A stretch of 64,000 nucleotides of DNA, taken from Spirochaetota bacterium (lineage in GTDB: Bacteria; Spirochaetota; UBA4802; UBA5550). The position numbers were made by a program, and so were the translations under genes. The number at the start of each line of letters is the position of its first letter. Position 1 is the stretch's first letter. Location of the stretch: positions 2,272,001-2,336,000 of the forward strand of contig OY760686.1 in assembly GCA_963663865.1 (NCBI GenBank). Direction: 5' to 3'. Of this stretch, positions 11,203-18,915 are shown in pieces. The notes under the pieces are model-generated. The model saw nothing but the letters and a program-made list of their open reading frames with translations, searched no databases and was not told the origin of the DNA.

Positions 11203-12294
11203 CTACAAAGGACTCCTTATATTATTAAGTGAAGGATTTTTACAATGCGTATAGATTGACGTAGTAGAAAGGTTCTTGTGGCCTAACAGCACCTGGATAT
11301 ATCGAATATCAATACCGTTTTCAAGAAGATGTGTAGCAAAACTATGCCTAAGGCTATGGCATGAGGCCTTTTTTTTGACTCCAGACCTGTAAAGGGCCAT
11401 CCTGAAAACCTGCTGGATTGTTCGCACAGTTAATTTCTTTTTATCATCAGAATGAAAGTTTGAAACAAACAGATAATCCATGGGCCCTTTGTGTTCAATG
11501 TATTCTTGAAGCTGTGATTTAAGAGATTCAGAAAAGATAGTTAACCTGTCTTTTTTCCCTTTTCCCTGATTTATCCTGATATTCAGGTTTTCCAGATTGA
11601 TGTCACCTGCCCTTAGATTCACAACCTCGGAAACTCTAAGCCCGGCAGAATATAATAGAGAAATCATTAGCCTGTGTTTTAGATTATTAATTGATTTAAT
11701 AATCTTCAGGACCTCGTTTCTTGTTAATATCTGCGGCAATCCCTTCTCTTTCTTTATCCCATTCATGAAAGAGATATCAATATCTCTGTGCAAGACTTCA
11801 CGAAAATAGAAGAGAAGCGCAAAGCGGTAAATTCTAATCGATGACACAGACACTTTTCTTGTATCAGTCAGATAAAGAAAATATTTATACATATCTGCAG
11901 AGGTAACAGATTCAATTGAAAGATTACATTGAGAATGAAAAAATCCGGCTATCTGAACAAGAGCACCGGAATAATTCTTTAGCGTTTTTGGACTATATCG
12001 TTTCAGCTTCATAAGCTCACAGAATCTGTCATAACCAGAAATCAGATTAGTTACCTGTCGGCGGTCAGGTATACCGGACGTTTTTGTAATGCCTATATCT
12101 TCCAGCATTTTATTGAAAATATAACGGCTTACATTATGGGAATTATAGTAATCCCGAATTAGTTCGATAAACCGGGTATTTTGAGTAATACTTTTACTCA
12201 CAAAAAAGCTGTAAATTTCGCTATTACTGATATACCTGAATGATTTATTGTATTCCCTTTCCATTTCAGTCAGCAGTTTCAAATATTCGTCCAT
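11203..12294 (-). CDS. Tyrosine recombinase in the integron-integrase position (SAM-like N-domain), lacking the IntI-specific insertion
   Basis: YSPKTLKNY SAM-like domain; catalytic LLYSAGLR, GKGKKDR, HSLRHSFATHLL, LLGH, IYTH; IntI-like C-terminus IRSPL; GGAGG RBS. Confidence 0.93.
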   Translation of the reverse strand: MDEYLKLLTEMEREYNKSFRYISNSEIYSFFVSKSITQNTRFIELIRDYYNSHNVSRYIFNKMLEDIGITKTSGIPDRRQVTNLISGYDRFCELMKLKRYSPKTLKNYSGALVQIAGFFHSQCNLSIESVTSADMYKYFLYLTDTRKVSVSSIRIYRFALLFYFREVLHRDIDISFMNGIKKEKGLPQILTRNEVLKIIKSINNLKHRLMISLLYSAGLRVSEVVNLRAGDINLENLNIRINQGKGKKDRLTIFSESLKSQLQEYIEHKGPMDYLFVSNFHSDDKKKLTVRTIQQVFRMALYRSGVKKKASCHSLRHSFATHLLENGIDIRYIQVLLGHKNLSTTSIYTHCKNPSLNNIRSPL

Positions 12295-12416
12295 ATCTTA
12301 TCCTCCAACTTAAGCTTAACCGAATATTTTATGCAGTTTGTCTTACTTTTTTGAATTATTTACGAATATTAATTGATTTTTATATATTTTTAAGCTGAGA
12401 ATGTTAAATGAAATTT

Positions 12417-12440
12417 TTGTGCAGACAATGATAGTTGTGC
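12417..12440 (+). other. Candidate attI site (crossover G|TT at 12434/12435)
   Basis: GCAGAC-AATGATA-GTTGTGC; the sequence from GTT onward is complementary to the 3' end of cassette 1, and no attC hairpin precedes it. Confidence 0.7.
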
Positions 12441-12469
12441 GCAATTTTTAAAATAATATCAGGTGTACT

Positions 12470-13354
12470 ATGAGCAGAAAACCAGGAAGATATTATGTAC
12501 ATAGAGTTTCTAAAATTGGTGATGTACCTGTTGAAAAAATATTAGATTCTATTATTAATTCAACATACATTCACTATAATAGCTACAAGTTTGCTTTTAC
12601 GGGTACTATATTAGAAGAAGATTATATTTTTTCATTCTTAACTAAATATTATCCTGAAGATGAAGTAACTATCGTTGACGAGTCAACATCACATATTGAA
12701 CAGAAAAAACAAGAAATTAAAAATTTGGTTAAAGCTGTTTGTCCATTTATTTTTATACCGAAAAAATCAATAATTGCTCATTTACATGTATGGAATGAAA
12801 TTACACCAGAAAATTTTGCCAAAATATTTCCAGTGCTACATGATGTTAAGCATAACACTATGTTCAGTGAAATAGTCATTGAACCTATTGCTGATTTAGA
12901 AGCATTTCTTAATAAACTTACAAAGATGACAGAAATTTCAAAAATAAAATCACGAATATATCCGTCAAATCCTCATTATAGTAAATATTGGAAGCTCCTT
13001 GATGAGTATTTAAAAAAGAGAAATGTCCAAGAAATGAATCTTTCTGAAGAATCAAAACTGGGTGGTTTAAAAACCCCGTTAGTTGAGGCAACGCAAAAAA
13101 TTCTAGATAATGAAGACATCCATGACATAGAAGACCTAAATTTAATTGAAATAAGTGTAATCATGGCTACAGATGGGTATGGCAATTCTGAAATACAAGG
13201 AAAGATCGATGGAGTTGAAGAAGCTATTTTTACAAACAAGAGTAATTTTACCTTTTTATTTGAGAAAGAACCATCTCATGAATTATTATACAAGAAAGTC
13301 GAAAAAATAGTAAAAAGAATTGAAAAGGAAAGGGGACTTCTCAGTGATGAATAA
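12470..13354 (+). CDS. Cassette 1 gene A, hypothetical soluble protein (DUF4747-like by recall)
   Basis: 294 aa ORF with RBS; PSNP and ATDGYG motifs. Confidence 0.55.
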   Translation: MSRKPGRYYVHRVSKIGDVPVEKILDSIINSTYIHYNSYKFAFTGTILEEDYIFSFLTKYYPEDEVTIVDESTSHIEQKKQEIKNLVKAVCPFIFIPKKSIIAHLHVWNEITPENFAKIFPVLHDVKHNTMFSEIVIEPIADLEAFLNKLTKMTEISKIKSRIYPSNPHYSKYWKLLDEYLKKRNVQEMNLSEESKLGGLKTPLVEATQKILDNEDIHDIEDLNLIEISVIMATDGYGNSEIQGKIDGVEEAIFTNKSNFTFLFEKEPSHELLYKKVEKIVKRIEKERGLLSDE

Positions 13355-13841
13355 TAAATTAATCCTCTTTTTTAGAGAATTTTTTTTATCATTTGATTTT
13401 ATTGTTTTTTTGATTTCGATGCTTGTTGTTATAATTAACAAATTAGACATTGAGTTTTTTGAAATATTTTACAGATTTATACTAACAGACAATAAAATAC
13501 TCTCAATTTCAATAATTGTTGTCTTCCATGTCTCAATATTATTTTATTGCATAAAGGCATACAATATGATTTTATTTCCCGATGATAAATTTAATAAGAT
13601 ATTAATTGAATTTGAGTTTTACGATGAATTAAAAATTACAGCATTGGTTTCTATACTAGAACCAGTGATTGCAATATTGATTATGCTTTATTTGCTGATT
13701 TTTGATCTTCAAACAATTATAACAAATAAAGCTATTTTGATCCTTGGGTTAGTATTTTATTCTTTGGTAGACTCAATTACTACTTTTTTTGCACAAAATA
13801 AAATTAAAGAATCACTTTATAAATTTGATCCATATGAATAA
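13347..13841 (+). CDS. Cassette 1 gene B, ~4-TM membrane protein
   Basis: Four hydrophobic segments; ATG 13347 overlaps the gene A stop (ORF track starts at 13320). Confidence 0.7.
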   Translation: MNNKLILFFREFFLSFDFIVFLISMLVVIINKLDIEFFEIFYRFILTDNKILSISIIVVFHVSILFYCIKAYNMILFPDDKFNKILIEFEFYDELKITALVSILEPVIAILIMLYLLIFDLQTIITNKAILILGLVFYSLVDSITTFFAQNKIKESLYKFDPYE

Positions 13842-13860
13842 CATAACTTTTAAAAACTGC

Positions 13861-14021
13861 GCACAACAAATCGTAACAGCTCCGGTCCTCAAGCAGCAGA
13901 GCTGCTTTCCGGTCCTCGGCCTGACGGCACATTGCATTTTGTCACGGATTTGTGCGTTCGCACAAACCGCGCCAACTGGCTAAAGCCAGACATGCAACGT
14001 CAGTTACGATAAACGTTATAT
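13861..14021 (+). other. attC-like site 1
   Basis: GCACAAC...GTTATAT with ATCGTAAC/GTTACGAT inner arms; 161 bp; GC-rich. Confidence 0.82.
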
Positions 14022-14054
14022 GAAAGACGGGCTAAATTTATTAAGGTGTACACA

Positions 14055-14669
14055 ATGAATGATGGTATAAAAGCATTCTATGATGCAACTGCGAAATTTA
14101 CAGCAGATGAATGGTATCCTAACGATTTATTATTGCCAACCATTGCTGATTTTATTTCTGTATTAACAAAAAAACCGTTGGTGCTTGATCTTGGATGTGG
14201 TCCTGGACATGAAAGTAAAAGATTATCAAAGGCTGGTGCAATTGTCACAGGAATAGATTTTAGTGAAGAATGTATTGATATAGCGAAGCAGAGAAGCCCA
14301 GAGTGTAATTTTGTAGTAGGGGATATCAGATCTCTGACTAAAGATATTGGAATTTTTGATGGGATATTTGCTTGTGCATCATTGATACATTTTCCTATGG
14401 ACGAATTATCATTCGTTTTTAAAAGCATTAATGCTATTCTTAAATATAATGGTTATTTAAACATAATAATATTAGATGGTGAAGGAGTAAGTAAAAAGTA
14501 TAGTAATTTAGAATTTGAAGGTAAAAAATATAATAGAACCGTATATCTTTATAGTAAAGATTTTATTATAAATGAGGCTGTGCAACAAGGTTTTTCATTT
14601 GTTCGTGAAGGATTTCTTGAAGAAGAATTGAAGGAATATGACTGGAGAAATTATTTATTTAAAAAATAA
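14055..14669 (+). CDS. Cassette 2, class I SAM-dependent methyltransferase
   Basis: VLDLGCGPG, GIDFS, FDGIFACASLIH motifs; alternative GTG start at 14046. Confidence 0.9.
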   Translation: MNDGIKAFYDATAKFTADEWYPNDLLLPTIADFISVLTKKPLVLDLGCGPGHESKRLSKAGAIVTGIDFSEECIDIAKQRSPECNFVVGDIRSLTKDIGIFDGIFACASLIHFPMDELSFVFKSINAILKYNGYLNIIILDGEGVSKKYSNLEFEGKKYNRTVYLYSKDFIINEAVQQGFSFVREGFLEEELKEYDWRNYLFKK

Positions 14670-14692
14670 TTTATTCTATTAGCCCGTCCTTC

Positions 14693-14790
14693 ATATAACA
14701 AAGCTTATGCGCTTCACTCGCTTTCGCTCGTTCGGGCTTCGCCAAATCGCGCAAAAGGCCGCGCAACGTCGTTTAGCCAAGACGTTAGGC
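14693..14790 (+). other. attC-like site 2
   Basis: ATATAAC...GTTAGGC, 98 bp, imperfect inverted arms. Confidence 0.8.
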
Positions 14791-14818
14791 GACATGACGC
14801 ACTTTAATTATTGGAGGT

Positions 14819-15748
14819 ATGAACTTGTCACTTTTAAGGGATATTCAAGATGCAGCAATAAATTCTGGAATTGAAATTTCAACTGTTTTGCGCAAGTGTA
14901 AAGTTCTATCTGCCCGACTTGGCAATAGTGAATTTAAAAGATGGGTTGATCAAGAATTGAATGGTTACGAAAGTATCGATGATTTACCAAGTTATCGTAT
15001 TTTAACTGTCCAATCAAAAGGACATTTCTCAGGCCCCTTTGGTAGTGGCATAAAGAATGGTGATATACCCTTAATCTGCTTACCTAAAGAATTAAGAGAA
15101 TCTTTAAGCAAAGCTTATTGTACTCAACCAATTTCAGCCTATGAAGCATTAATAAAATCATCAAAAGGCGATAATTTTCAAGAACAATGGCCACCCGATT
15201 TAGTTGCATTATATGGTGGTGAAATTTATCAGAACATGAGCTGCATGACAGCATGGAAAACAATTCCTTATGGATTAATAGTTGCATTAATTGATACTGT
15301 TAGAAATCGAGTTTTGAATTTTGTAATAGAACTAGAATCTGAATCACCTGATGCAGGTGAATCACCAATCAATAAACCATCAATATCACGGGATAAAATT
15401 GCACATGTTTTCAATACTACCATATATGGAAATGTCGGAAATATTGCAGATGGAAGCTCAAATATAAATCAAACTGCAACATTAAATGTTCACAAAGATG
15501 ATCTTTCAAGTTTAAGGACAGAACTAGGAAAACTTGGGATACCTCAAGCAGAACTTGATGAATTAGAAATATCAATCAAAGCTGATGATAAAAAAGAAGT
15601 AATAAAAAATAAAAATCTTGGTTTACAAGTTACTAATTGGCTTGGTGGATTATTTACTAAATCGGCCAAAGGAGTTATTCCTGTACTTCAGGGACTAACT
15701 GCAAATATGATTACAAAAGCTTTATTTTTATATTATGGAATTGAATGA
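14819..15748 (+). CDS. Cassette 3, AbiTii-domain protein
   Basis: N-terminal LRKCKVLSARL...WVDQELNGY...LPSYR signature of AbiTii. Confidence 0.8.
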   Translation: MNLSLLRDIQDAAINSGIEISTVLRKCKVLSARLGNSEFKRWVDQELNGYESIDDLPSYRILTVQSKGHFSGPFGSGIKNGDIPLICLPKELRESLSKAYCTQPISAYEALIKSSKGDNFQEQWPPDLVALYGGEIYQNMSCMTAWKTIPYGLIVALIDTVRNRVLNFVIELESESPDAGESPINKPSISRDKIAHVFNTTIYGNVGNIADGSSNINQTATLNVHKDDLSSLRTELGKLGIPQAELDELEISIKADDKKEVIKNKNLGLQVTNWLGGLFTKSAKGVIPVLQGLTANMITKALFLYYGIE

Positions 15749-15761
15749 AGTGCGTCACGTC

Positions 15762-15905
15762 GCCTAACACGGCGTCATGCGCTTCGTCGCTGCGCTCCTC
15801 GGCCTCCTCGGCCTCCGCGCCCAAGATATGAAGACGGGCGCTCCGGCACATTTTCACCTCCGCTGCGCTAAGGTGAAAACGTCGTATACGCCGGTGGCGT
15901 TATAT
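15762..15905 (+). other. attC-like site 3
   Basis: GCCTAAC...GTTATAT, 144 bp; CGGCGT(C)ATGCG / CGTATACGCCG arms. Confidence 0.85.
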
Positions 15906-15987
15906 GAAATGCGGCTTAACAGATTTTAAAGATCCGGCCATCCATGGCCGGTTATAAATAAATCAACTCTATATTTAGAGGAAAATT

Positions 15988-16572
15988 ATGTCAAAAAATG
16001 AAATAATTATTAAGCTGTTATCAATGTTATTCGAAAGAAATGAAGCATATCACGATCAAAAAGAAAAAATGATTCATGCTGGAGTTTTAATCGAAATTGG
16101 TTTATTAACTGGAATCACATCCTTAAATAAACTTCCATTTGACTGTATTAGTTTAAATATTATAATATTTATTTTATTATGGCTTATCATTTATTCTTTC
16201 ATTCGATTCCATTCTCTTTATAAAAGAACTGCTGCAGTTTATCGTATAGCATATGAACGAGCTCTATGGTTGTGTTATAATGATTCACCAAAAAATAATA
16301 ATACTAAACTTAACAAGAAAAAAAATGAAAGTAAATTATCAAAGACAAAAATAATTCTATCGTTTCTATTCCCATTCTATAATGATAATTTGTTTTTAGA
16401 TTCAGATGTAACAAAAGCAGAACGTAATAATGCATATTATTCAAATTTCTTTTATGAAATTTTAGATAAATCAAGAAATGAACATGTTGGAGCAACTAAT
16501 TATGAAGTTATAATTTCCATAGGAAGTATAATAATTTTAATTATAGGAATAATAAAAATTGTATTATTTTAA
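15988..16572 (+). CDS. Cassette 4, hypothetical membrane protein
   Basis: 194 aa with about 3 hydrophobic helices; GAGG RBS. Confidence 0.7.
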   Translation: MSKNEIIIKLLSMLFERNEAYHDQKEKMIHAGVLIEIGLLTGITSLNKLPFDCISLNIIIFILLWLIIYSFIRFHSLYKRTAAVYRIAYERALWLCYNDSPKNNNTKLNKKKNESKLSKTKIILSFLFPFYNDNLFLDSDVTKAERNNAYYSNFFYEILDKSRNEHVGATNYEVIISIGSIIILIIGIIKIVLF

Positions 16573-16642
16573 AATATTTTTCTTTAATATTAGCTCGTAC
16601 ATCCGTGTACTCGCTAACTATGTGCTACAAGCGCCGCACTTC

Positions 16643-16776
16643 ATATAACACGGCGTCATGCGCTTCGTCGCTGCGCTCCTCGGCCTCCGCGCCCACAATA
16701 TGAAGACGGGCGCTCTGGCACATTTTCACCTTCGCTGCGCTGCGGTGAAAACGTCGCATACGCCGGAACGTTATGC
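16643..16776 (+). other. attC-like site 4
   Basis: ATATAAC...GTTATGC, 134 bp; near-identical to site 3; extrahelical C in the left arm. Confidence 0.87.
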
Positions 16777-16815
16777 GAAAGAGCCCGTTGAACTTTTTTA
16801 TAAAAGGAGACTAAT

Positions 16816-17439
16816 TTGAGTCAATATATAATTGTTGGGAATACAAGGTATTTTTGTGAGAAAACAATTGATTGCTACGAAAATCTTCTCCGCCTTGATA
16901 AACAGTTACATGAAGAAAAAGAACGAAAATCTCGCGATGACGCAATTTATGATGATTTCGAATTAAGTTTTAAGGAGGGACGATTAGCAAAGGATTTATT
17001 AAAAGAAAAGATGTCTATGATCGTTTTTGCTTCGTTTACGATTGAATCATATATTAACGGATACGCAATATACAGTCTAGGAAATAAATATTTTGAAGAT
17101 CATTTAGAAAAAATAAATATTAAAAATAAATGGATTGTATTTCCAAAACTAATTTGTGGTTCAGATTTTCCAAAAGACAAGAAAAGCTGGAATTTACTTG
17201 ATAAATTAATTGATAACAGAAATAAATTAGCACATGATAAACCAAAACGAATTAAGGTTGATGAAATTGATTCATTAAAAAGGAATACTAAAGTAAAACA
17301 TATTTCACCAAGTGAAATTATTGATGCTTTTTATGAACTACAGAAAGATTTAATCTCAATCGATGAAAGCATATCTGAATATTTAATGATTGATGGGTAT
17401 AATAATAAAAGGATTGAAAAATTAAAAAAATCTTCTTAA
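16816..17439 (+). CDS. Cassette 5, HEPN-like protein (putative RNase)
   Basis: Helical protein with IESYIN and RNKLAH (Rx4H) motifs; TTG start after AAGGAG. Confidence 0.6.
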   Translation: MSQYIIVGNTRYFCEKTIDCYENLLRLDKQLHEEKERKSRDDAIYDDFELSFKEGRLAKDLLKEKMSMIVFASFTIESYINGYAIYSLGNKYFEDHLEKINIKNKWIVFPKLICGSDFPKDKKSWNLLDKLIDNRNKLAHDKPKRIKVDEIDSLKRNTKVKHISPSEIIDAFYELQKDLISIDESISEYLMIDGYNNKRIEKLKKSS

Positions 17440-17456
17440 TAATTACGGGCTCCATC

Positions 17457-17575
17457 GGACAACAAAGCTTACACGCTGCGTCGCTATCGGTCCTTGGCAC
17501 TCGCCTTGAGAAGCATGCTCGGCAAATTGGCTTCCCTTACGCTTCGCCGACTTCGTGTAGCCGCGGGCGTTAGGC
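17457..17575 (+). other. attC-like site 5
   Basis: GGACAAC...GTTAGGC, 119 bp; GCT(T)ACACG / CGTGTAGC arms. Confidence 0.8.
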
Positions 17576-17596
17576 GCAATATCAATTGGAGAAGAA

Positions 17597-18097
17597 ATGA
17601 TTCGAGAAGCAATATTATCTGACTCAAATGTAATAGCTGAAATAATTGTAGAGACTTGGCAAAAATCGTTTATTAATATAATTGATCAGAATTACATAGA
17701 GAGCATGGATGTACAACGGTTTGTCAACATAATGAAGGATAATATACAATTGAATAAAGAAATTATATTTGTGTATGAGGAAAATGAAATAATTAAAGGT
17801 TTTATCTCAGGTAAAATCACAGAATATTCTGACCACCAGTGTGAAATAGTTGGTTTTTATATTTTGCCCAAGTATCAACGAATGGGGATTGGCAAAATAT
17901 TATTTCAACAAATTATAGAATATTTTTCTAGGCATAATTATAAAAAAATGATTCTTTGGACTTTGAATAGTGCAAAAAATAATTCATTCTATAAGAATAA
18001 TGGTGGAGAAATTACTGATAAAAAAATATTGGAGATTGGTGGTAAGACGTACGATGGAATAGGATTTTCATTTAATCTTCCCCCTATTTCCAATTGA
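17597..18097 (+). CDS. Cassette 6, GNAT N-acetyltransferase
   Basis: MIREA start, YILPKYQRMGIGK acetyl-CoA motif, FYKNNGG. Confidence 0.92.
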   Translation: MIREAILSDSNVIAEIIVETWQKSFINIIDQNYIESMDVQRFVNIMKDNIQLNKEIIFVYEENEIIKGFISGKITEYSDHQCEIVGFYILPKYQRMGIGKILFQQIIEYFSRHNYKKMILWTLNSAKNNSFYKNNGGEITDKKILEIGGKTYDGIGFSFNLPPISN

Positions 18098-18103
18098 TAC
18101 AGC

Positions 18104-18183
18104 GCCTAACAGAGAATAGGCGTTTCCGCTTCGCTTAACCCAAATTGGCCTGTGGCCAACTTCGTTTAGCCAGGACGTTATAC
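18104..18183 (+). other. attC-like site 6
   Basis: GCCTAAC...GTTATAC, 80 bp; right arm CGTTTAGCCAGGACGTT resembles that of site 2. Confidence 0.75.
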
Positions 18184-18234
18184 GAAATCCGGCAAAACTT
18201 AATTGTGGCACTTTTAACAGAAAAAGGGAACTAA

Positions 18235-18843
18235 ATGAAAGCAAGTGTAATTTTAGCACATCCATACTCTCAGAGCTTCAATCATGCAATATATCAGGCA
18301 GTATGCTCAAAACTTGAGAGTCTGAATATTGAAGTATTTAAACATGATCTATATCAGGAACAATTTAGTCCTATACTTACCGTTGAAGAATTAGGATCGG
18401 ATACTTCAACCGATATTCTTGTAAATCAATATGCATCAGAATTAATGGAATCAACCTTTATTTTTTTTATTCATCCAAATTGGTGGGGACAACCTCCTGC
18501 AATTTTAAAAGGCTATATTGACCGCGTAATTCGTCCACCATATTCATATGATTTCCCAACCGGAGATTCCGGAGGTGGTCTTCCTGTCGGAAAATTGAAA
18601 GGGAAATATGGTATTGTTTTAAATACATCTAATACTGAAGAGGAAAGAGAAAATAATTACTTTAACGATCCGTTGGAAAATATATGGAAACAATGTGTTT
18701 TTGGGTTCTGCGGAATAGAAAAATATTATAGAAAAATGCTTCGAATTATAGCTGATAGCACTTTGGAACAAAGAAATAAATGGATTATAGAAATTAAAGA
18801 AGTAGTTGAAAATGTTATCGGTAATTCGCTGGACATCGCATAA
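18235..18843 (+). CDS. Cassette 7, NAD(P)H:quinone oxidoreductase (flavodoxin-like fold)
   Basis: LAHPYSQSFN, HPNWWGQPPAILKGYIDRV; the stop codon lies inside the inverse core GCATAAC. Confidence 0.9.
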   Translation: MKASVILAHPYSQSFNHAIYQAVCSKLESLNIEVFKHDLYQEQFSPILTVEELGSDTSTDILVNQYASELMESTFIFFIHPNWWGQPPAILKGYIDRVIRPPYSYDFPTGDSGGGLPVGKLKGKYGIVLNTSNTEEERENNYFNDPLENIWKQCVFGFCGIEKYYRKMLRIIADSTLEQRNKWIIEIKEVVENVIGNSLDIA

Positions 18844-18915
18844 CTAGGGATATATTCGACGGCTTCGCCACATTTTTGTGTTGCAAAAACTGATCATATA
18901 CCTGAAACTTTATAG
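18838..18915 (+). other. Degenerate attC-like site 7 (core GTT reads TTT)
   Basis: GCATAAC...AAAC-TTTATAG; AGGGATATAT / ATATACCT arms. Confidence 0.6.

Follow-up and report, generated by a model that had tools for sequence, protein, structure and literature searches.

An integron-like cassette array beside a tyrosine recombinase without the I2 region in a Spirochaetota genome: cassette-specific terminal repeats with a fixed mismatch at position 11

Both the detection of integrons and the accepted mechanism of their recombination rest on the I2 domain of the integron integrase, IntI, and on extrahelical bases of the folded attC site. According to the available text of one study, the extrahelical bases of canonical attC sites are contacted by the I2 helix and by the β-4,5 strands of the integrase (PMC3053210). 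The outer box of the site, the R box, is defined as 7 bp in the accessible part of another (PMC5027507). In survey pipelines, as far as the excerpts at hand of two reports describe them, IntI is identified by this additional domain (PMC8352920; 10.1101/2022.02.06.479319). Here, a locus is described that departs from this scheme. It lies in a stretch of 64,000 nucleotides of a Spirochaetota bacterium (GCA_963663865.1, contig OY760686.1, positions 2,272,001 to 2,336,000 of the forward strand), the whole of which is called the window below. A gene for a tyrosine recombinase, hereafter the window integrase, diverges there from an array of seven cassettes, C1 to C7. Each cassette carries its own long terminal inverted repeat with a mismatch at position 11, and the integrase is without the I2 region. 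The reading we lean towards, if with only slightly better than even confidence, is that of an undescribed integron class, in which an I2-less integrase would go together with a long R arm, a wobble pair would serve recognition and strand choice, and the excised circle and the array would differ in their ability to fold.

The region is built like an integron cassette array with attC sites, as the following features show (ORF, open reading frame).

11203..12294, minus strand: integrase, 363 residues, tyrosine recombinase (Pfam Phage_integrase and Phage_int_SAM_4, NCBIfam models, alignment with 2a3v)
12295..12433, plus strand: attI-like region, from the integrase start codon to the first GTT crossover triplet (sequence reading)
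12434..13867, plus strand: cassette C1, two ORFs without family; start arm 12434-12453, end arm 13848-13867
13868..14014, plus strand: attC core of C1, 147 nt, GC 0.53
14015..14699, plus strand: cassette C2, S-adenosylmethionine (SAM)-dependent methyltransferase; start arm 14015-14035, end arm 14679-14699
14700..14783, plus strand: attC core of C2, 84 nt
14784..15768, plus strand: cassette C3, AbiTii-family protein; start arm 14784-14804, end arm 15748-15768, adjoining the stop codon
15769..15898, plus strand: attC core of C3, 130 nt, near-identical to the attC core of C4
15899..16649, plus strand: cassette C4, ORF without family; start arm 15899-15915, end arm 16633-16649
16650..16769, plus strand: attC core of C4, 120 nt
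16770..17463, plus strand: cassette C5, weak HEPN-like matches below cut-off
17464..17568, plus strand: attC core of C5, 105 nt
17569..18110, plus strand: cassette C6, GNAT acetyltransferase; start arm 17569-17590, end arm 18089-18110
18111..18176, plus strand: attC core of C6, 66 nt
18177..18844, plus strand: cassette C7, flavodoxin-like fold, NAD(P)H-dependent reductase type; degraded arms

From 12434 on, the cassettes all point in one direction and are AT-rich (GC fraction 0.26-0.34). The segments between them, of 66-147 nt, are GC-rich (0.52-0.65), with AAC at the left and GTT at the right, and are predicted by folding to form an attC-like hairpin that is more stable on the bottom strand. 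The imperfect AAC...GTT palindrome with inner L boxes, characteristic of attC, is found in all six of these window sites; a paired L box is likewise present in 42 unique attC sites of the relatives considered below. In these relatives, the distance from the start of the integrase gene to the first cassette is 120-220 nt. After C7, only the left part of an attC-like sequence is seen (18845-18900); the array stops there and is followed by ordinary genes of higher GC.

The repeats were analysed by comparing the first 30 bases of each cassette with the reverse complement of its last 30. Position 11 is the sole mismatch in C1 (12434/13867, 20 positions compared), C2 (14015/14699, 21 positions), C3 (14784/15768, 21 positions) and C4 (15899/16649, 17 positions). 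Over 22 positions, C6 (17569/18110) is mismatched at 10 and 11. C5 (16770/17463) is mismatched at 4, 6, 10 and 11 with positions 12-19 perfect, and C7 (18177/18844) at 6, 10, 11, 15 and 18, that is, at five positions in 20. In 7/7 cassettes, the start has A at position 11 and the reverse-complemented end has G, which corresponds to A.C on the top strand and to T.G on the bottom strand. Beyond position 3, the repeat sequence varies from cassette to cassette. An earlier note, made from the letters of the window alone, had described cassette-own terminal repeats of 17-22 bp between 12434 and 18844 with this fixed mismatch, additional mismatches in C5 and C7 with A/G kept at 11, and a distal part differing between cassettes and complementary within each; the comparison of each cassette with its own other end bears out this description. 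In C6, the end arm covers the last codons of the ORF, which ends at 18097, and the stem is retained despite the overlap.

The whole genome (3,156,400 bases, both strands) was scanned for GTT...AAC arms of 20 with A/G at position 11 and at most two other mismatches. Six matches were obtained, four of them in the window array and one in each of two other arrays of the same genome; none was found outside cassette arrays. Because the matches of the genome-wide scan fall only in cassette arrays, a chance origin of the window repeats is excluded. The further arrays of the same end design in this genome lie at about 637000-641300 and 979600-982300. A near-copy of the attI-like region (12300-12433) stands at about 979.6 kb, directly before another cassette, and a protein search gave no integrase homologue near that array.

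The same design is met beside homologous integrases. Out of 401 genomes sampled from the same phylum, 27 further ones encode full-length homologues (39-51% identity). Flanking sequence was taken for 17 of these homologues, which together with the window gives 18 loci. Long-repeat cassettes are carried by 16 of the 18, with 63 cassettes in total, 61 of them unique; the best array, L048, consists of 16 consecutive cassettes tiled without gaps. Position 11 is A/G in 61/61 unique cassettes, so that the survey of cassette ends beside homologous integrases, proposed in the earlier note, turned out in favour of its claim. Positions 4-10 are 93-100% complementary and semi-conserved, with G at position 8 in 59/61 and C or A at positions 9 and 10. 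T is found at position 12 in 51/61 and at position 13 in 29/61. Over positions 12-17, complementarity within a cassette is 96-100%; the ends of unrelated cassettes agree there in 23-68% (68% at 12, 23-33% at 13-17). Complementarity then decays over positions 18-22 (83, 75, 68, 47 and 37%), and the stem ends are ragged, at 17-23 bp.

The distribution extends beyond these loci. The metagenome-assembled genome L001, from the Bdellovibrionales, carries an integrase 44% identical to that of the window and cassettes of the same end design. When metagenomes were scanned with the clade alignment, A/G-marked cassettes were present at 16 of 80 loci, many of the others being too short to judge. Ten of these 16 arrays are upstream of and divergent from the recombinase gene, six are downstream and co-directional, and none is placed otherwise. 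The six downstream arrays (L148, L150, L151, L175, L192 and L195) thus have the reverse orientation. Shorter recombinases, of 270-285 residues, stand beside such arrays at L135, L138-L140, L142, L143, L145, L146 and L158, where the arms mostly show adjacent mismatches at 10 and 11, as in C6 of the window. Around weaker relatives of the integrase (E about 1e-50, aligned from residue 90), no long-repeat cassette was found upstream at nine loci, the downstream sides lying outside this search; these genes are probably ordinary Xer-type ones.

For comparison, 20 loci upstream of integrases passing the IntI model TIGR02249 were collected from gammaproteobacterial genomes, and their attC sites were located from the inner complementarity alone. 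Among 112 pairs of consecutive sites, 53 from 13 arrays, with positions 4-7 fully complementary, were kept. In these 53 cassettes, complementarity is 84% at position 8, 60% at 9, 41% at 10, 49% at 11 and 32% at 12, and is at background from position 13; the longest stem has 12 bp without mismatch, or 14 bp with one. A search for the best partner of 145 canonical starts gave 5-14 bp, versus 16-23 bp for true I2-less cassettes. Canonical ends do pair beyond 7 bp, but far below 17-22 bp and without the fixed mismatch. The statement of the earlier note that a standard attC site needs only a 7 bp match is therefore roughly right, and understates the pairing beyond it. The same note had named equally long ends in canonical cassettes as the observation that would speak against its claim; canonical complementarity was found to have faded to background before those lengths are reached. 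A scan with arms of 20 nt over the 20 canonical loci gave 19 matches with four mismatches or fewer in 276,855 bases. Judged by eye, these comprise a single real cassette (L110 2507-3211, 13 perfect bp), the others being small hairpins, an insertion-sequence-like repeat and scattered matches. The same scan over the I2-less loci gave 81 matches in 119,548 bases.

Two genomes of the window genome's family, G051 and G400, carry one integrase of each kind, the I2-containing ones scoring 387 and 400 bits with TIGR02249. In G051, the array of the I2-containing IntI has ends of 5-10 bp and that of the I2-less integrase has 20-bp A/G ends. Because both kinds coexist in this genome, each with its own end type, the long-end feature tracks the type of integrase and not the host. 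Together with the contrast between the clade and the canonical arrays and with the metagenome loci, this supports the link between long ends and an I2-less integrase drawn in the earlier note. No array was recognized beside the canonical integrase of G400 (G400:C99), nor beside a canonical IntI pair in G100 tried as a control of the same order; the two genes of this pair are arranged back to back. Among generic attC detectors, local alignment of the inner flanks at a threshold of 22 recovered 0 window attC sites, and a minimum-free-energy detector with forced AAC-GTT pairing recovered 3/6, one with a wrong boundary. A relaxed alignment found 1/6 of the window sites and performed well on canonical ones, and was therefore used mainly for the canonical control.

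The integrase itself is of an IntI/XerA-like type, and its Phage_integrase match runs without insertion. It passes marginally the XerA-type model NF040815 (221.3 bits, cut-off 220), which NCBI describes as 'site-specific tyrosine recombinase/integron integrase'. With TIGR02249, it reaches 204.1 bits, below the cut-off of 265, and the match is split between model positions 5-179 and about 216-313; six clade members match it in two pieces likewise. Alignment with the VchIntIA structure 2a3v skips chain residues 182-244, where the query has 24 residues, and about 39 residues of the IntI-specific I2/β-4,5 region are missing. The additional domain that defines IntI in the sense of IntegronFinder and of Messier and Roy (α-I2 helix, β-4,5) is absent from the window integrase, and its C-terminal tail aligns with that of IntI. 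The catalytic residues R220, H313, R316, H339 and Y348 are invariant in 22 clade members. The predicted structure (predicted local distance difference test, pLDDT, 84.6) is closest to VchIntIA 2a3v, then to XerA 5hxy and 4a8e. In the window genome, 98% complete and in one contig, no protein matches TIGR02249 over its cut-off; other Xer-like genes occur elsewhere in this genome.

An extra N-terminal domain of about 70 residues, predicted with confidence to form four helices, precedes the recombinase domains. It corresponds to residues 1-68 (12091-12294, minus strand) and contains a YISN motif conserved in the clade. Neither a Pfam family nor a trustworthy fold match was found for it. The idea of a duplicated core-binding domain was considered and abandoned, as Foldseek gave no match and hhalign against the core-binding domain gave a probability of 3.6%. 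VIA-align scores stay at Z ≤6, below the trust level for helical bundles, and the rows below that level include several N-terminal domains of tyrosine recombinases. Phage_int_SAM_4 matched the N-terminal cut in 4/22 members, which may reflect an overlap of the cut with the true domain.

The limits of the mobile unit may be deduced from a related array, L043, in which the copies of a duplicated cassette coincide from the start GTT up to the next GTT, ORF and downstream attC included. The copies are unrelated left of the first GTT and diverge again right after the second. Because the duplicates share exactly this unit and diverge outside it, crossover, as seen in L043 and not directly in the window array, takes place at or next to the canonical G|TT, and the cassette carries its own attC at its 3′ end, as integron cassettes do. 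Duplicated and shared cassettes are seen both in this related array and in the window genome, an indirect indication that the integrase may catalyse attI x attC and attC x attC recombination. As for gene content in the window, defence-type genes are represented by the AbiTii-family protein (14819-15748, E 1.8e-47) and by the weak sub-cut-off HEPN matches (16816-17439); such cassette genes are shared with other chromosomal integrons.

These boundaries also bear on whether the units might be small transposable elements with terminal inverted repeats, moved by a transposase. The repeats of 17-22 bp on each unit have indeed this appearance. However, they differ from unit to unit, the duplicates carry the downstream hairpin with them and break at GTT, the arrays always stand beside a tyrosine recombinase in a set orientation, and the genome scan gave no copies outside arrays. 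Such elements would share one repeat, carry target-site duplications and be moved by a transposase; in the window array, the repeats are specific to each cassette and no transposase occurs among the ORFs. A transposable origin is hardly credible on these grounds.

With the crossover at G|TT, the stem of 17-22 bp can form only when the two ends of one cassette are joined. Circular junctions were built in silico for 43 cassettes and folded with DNA parameters. Joining a cassette's own ends yields a terminal stem of about 20 bp. On the bottom strand, the mean energy is -63.8 kcal/mol for the circular junction versus -49.5 kcal/mol for the hybrid site present in the array (n=43), a mean gain of -14.3 kcal/mol, and in 41/43 junctions the top strand folds less stably than the bottom one. 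In terms of matches, the end arm agrees with its own cassette start at 15.2/17 positions, versus 7.5/17 with the start of the next cassette. The earlier note had anticipated a gain of stem restricted to joined ends, with a G.T wobble on the bottom strand, and had suggested such folding as a check; the predicted folds, together with the position of the crossover, agree with it. In 27/42 unique attC cores, the L box is a duplex of 9 bp or more (9-12 bp) with no interruption, the rest showing a single bulge or an A/G mismatch; because of these 27 cores, extrahelical bases would not be a constant of the I2-less class. The unpaired spacer that precedes the L box is asymmetric, its two sides having 1-3 nt and 4-5 nt. 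In L040-L048, the cores contain a conserved ACGTCG-like motif on the R′ side just inside the L box, which faces non-complementary sequence, hence an asymmetric internal loop.

The complementarity could act in RNA rather than in DNA, the ends of each cistron pairing in the array transcript, or an antisense transcript pairing with G.U at position 11. The location of the arms would suit this possibility: the one at the start is part of the 5′ untranslated region, just upstream of the ribosome-binding site, and the one at the end directly follows the stop codon or overlaps it. Yet position 11 is an A.C mismatch in the sense transcript, no Rfam family matched in the window, and the arms run without a gap into AAC/GTT and the attC core, with outer limits that fit a DNA recombination site. 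A role in RNA is accordingly very improbable.

Considering these observations, the following mechanism may be proposed for the I2-less class. The outer arm of attC, the R arm, is far longer than in canonical sites. Its inner part comprises about 10 semi-conserved bp (consensus GTTRKRYGMM), followed at position 11 by an obligatory mismatch, in which A of the start arm faces C of the end arm on the top strand and T faces G on the bottom strand, and then by an outer part of 6-12 further bp, free in sequence and co-varying within each cassette. Owing to the crossover at G|TT, one half of the R arm is located at the 5′ end of the cassette and the other before the attC core. The full stem thus exists only in the excised cassette, and the attC in the array is a hybrid with a poorly paired R arm. 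We infer that the I2-less integrase reads the long stem and the fixed wobble on the folded bottom strand. The wobble, one helical turn away from the cleavage site, would mark the bottom strand, the top strand having A.C at this place, and would replace the contacts of canonical IntI between the I2 region and extrahelical bases. In addition, the difference in foldability between circle and array would favour insertion of circles and stabilize integrated cassettes, excision being rarer. Of the three roles that the earlier note had suggested for the stem, namely a bias to integration over excision, another recognition element for the integrase and a record of how cassettes are made, the last gained no evidence here.

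It may be asked whether the long stem has any function. In a second scenario, it would be a by-product, complementarity being extended by template switching or repair on the folded hairpin while the two arms are separately constrained by a protein at position 11. The semi-conservation of positions 1-12 (G8, A11 and T12, with A11 in 61/61) is what would be expected of a protein-binding arm, and the raggedness of the stem ends also points this way. On the other hand, canonical cassettes fold alike, yet their complementarity ends at 8-12 bp. Moreover, one mismatch is kept in every unique cassette within stems that are otherwise 96-100% paired, which argues for selection, and the stem of C6 is kept over coding sequence and a ribosome-binding site. 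For these reasons, the by-product scenario is unlikely. Because a single mismatch survives in otherwise perfect stems, even over the coding sequence in C6, the pattern argues that the position-11 mismatch itself is under selection.

Another possibility concerns positions 11-13. In roughly half of the cassettes, these are ATT in the start arm and GTT in the mirrored end arm. They might be a weakened second crossover triplet, one helical turn away from the first, used for occasional exchange or acting as a decoy. The frequencies of T at positions 12 and 13 would fit this idea, as would several discordant arms. Two copies of a cassette, at 640309-641036 and 981437-982164, differ at six of positions 1-10 and are identical from 10/11 on; in the copy at 981437, positions 4-10 of the start arm no longer match its own end arm. 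In C5 and in the cassette at 638878-640224, positions 4-10 are discordant and positions 12-19 perfect. In the kinase-like cassette of L001 (reverse complement of 1-1721), a GC-rich insert of 42 nt separates positions 11 and 10 of the end arm exactly at their border; the start arm of this cassette opens with A in place of G, and the contig ends shortly after. Finally, two mini-cassettes of L066 share positions 11-20 and differ at 4-10, concordantly at both ends. These few cases hint at an occasional exchange at the second triplet. However, only three or four such cases are counted, and positions 4-10 agree at both ends in 93-100% of cassettes, which makes such exchange rare at best. Furthermore, the right end of the duplication between 640 kb and 981 kb is not at a cassette boundary, and the L043 duplicates break at the first GTT. 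As the explanation of the pattern, a second crossover triplet is improbable.

Returning to the proposal of a distinct integron class with wobble-based recognition, several points weigh against it. The asymmetric spacer (1-3 vs 4-5 nt) could by itself provide strand choice. The other stem mismatches favour wobbles on the bottom strand weakly, with eight against two on the top strand and 13 transversions. Two of the 18 loci, L065 and L067, show no cassette, both having short flanks. The extra N-terminal domain cannot be a general reader of the extension: the relatives of 270-285 residues, without this domain and without I2, have the same stems. From these sequence comparisons, the common denominator of the long stem is the absence of I2 and not the presence of the N-terminal domain. 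Lastly, since the I2-less cassettes were defined by their own repeats, the profile of positions 1-20 is partly selected for; this circularity is eased by the gap-free tiling of the 16 cassettes of L048, by the agreement of a pipeline starting from attC, and by the specificity of the genome scan.

The consequences reach beyond one genome. I2-less arrays were found in many metagenomes and in genomes from two or more phyla-level groups. Since IntI is identified by its additional domain, such a class would be excluded from current surveys, which would miss I2-less integrons or label them as orphan arrays. From the available text of the survey reports, pipelines needing the IntI-specific domain would not call the window integrase, and the array would probably be labelled a cluster of attC sites lacking an integron integrase (CALIN, as called by IntegronFinder) if its attC sites were detected. 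In the portions of the literature retrieved by our search, no report was found of integron integrases that are without the additional domain, of R boxes that are extended or of attC sites that contain a wobble; supplementary lists, outside this search, may hold such arrays as CALINs. A broader view may tentatively be put forward, namely that I2-less integrons are widespread and unrecognized, that the T.G wobble, ten base pairs from the cleavage site in an R arm of roughly 20 bp, takes the place of extrahelical bases in substrate recognition and strand choice, and that positions 11-13 may be a second crossover point. The I2-less class may also be a natural intermediate between Xer-type recombinases and IntI, and would then bear on the origin of single-stranded recombination. 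Its rule is simple, combining the length of the arm with a single wobble whose distance from the cleavage site is constant, and it might serve the design of structure-specific recombination sites.

How does this locus compare with known systems? Unlike CALINs, it belongs to a set of 16 genome and 16 metagenome loci in which a conserved recombinase gene stands beside the array in a fixed orientation. The reverse orientation is typical of Spirochaetota IntIs in the part of the archaeal-integron preprint available to us (10.1101/2022.02.06.479319), and the six metagenome loci with a downstream, co-directional array resemble these integrons. Those IntIs, as far as the same text goes, carry the IntI-specific domain, whereas the window integrase is without it and is divergent from its array.

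With Xer-type recombinases, in particular archaeal XerA, the window integrase shares NF040815 as its best NCBIfam model, a similar length and a catalytic domain without insert. The arms of Xer sites, of about 11 bp, have the length of the semi-conserved part described here (positions 2-12). The differences lie in the context, which is a cassette array and not a single dimer-resolution site, in the I2-less sites, which are folded hairpins with arms unique to each cassette, and in the C-terminal tail, which is IntI-like.

The locus may also be compared with canonical integrons. The divergent integrase beside an attI-like region, the one-directional promoterless cassettes, the AAC...GTT palindromes, the crossover at G|TT, the better folding of the bottom strand and VchIntIA 2a3v as the closest solved structure are all alike. 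In contrast, the window integrase is without the 39 or so residues of I2/β-4,5 and falls below the TIGR02249 cut-off. The R arm of the I2-less sites has 17-23 bp with a fixed T.G/A.C at position 11, versus 7-12 bp in canonical sites, and their L box is often an uninterrupted duplex of 9-12 bp, next to an asymmetric unpaired spacer with sides of 1-3 nt and 4-5 nt. What appears to be new here is thus a system that would work like an integron, whose integrase fails the test by which integrons are defined, and whose attC sites follow a different design.

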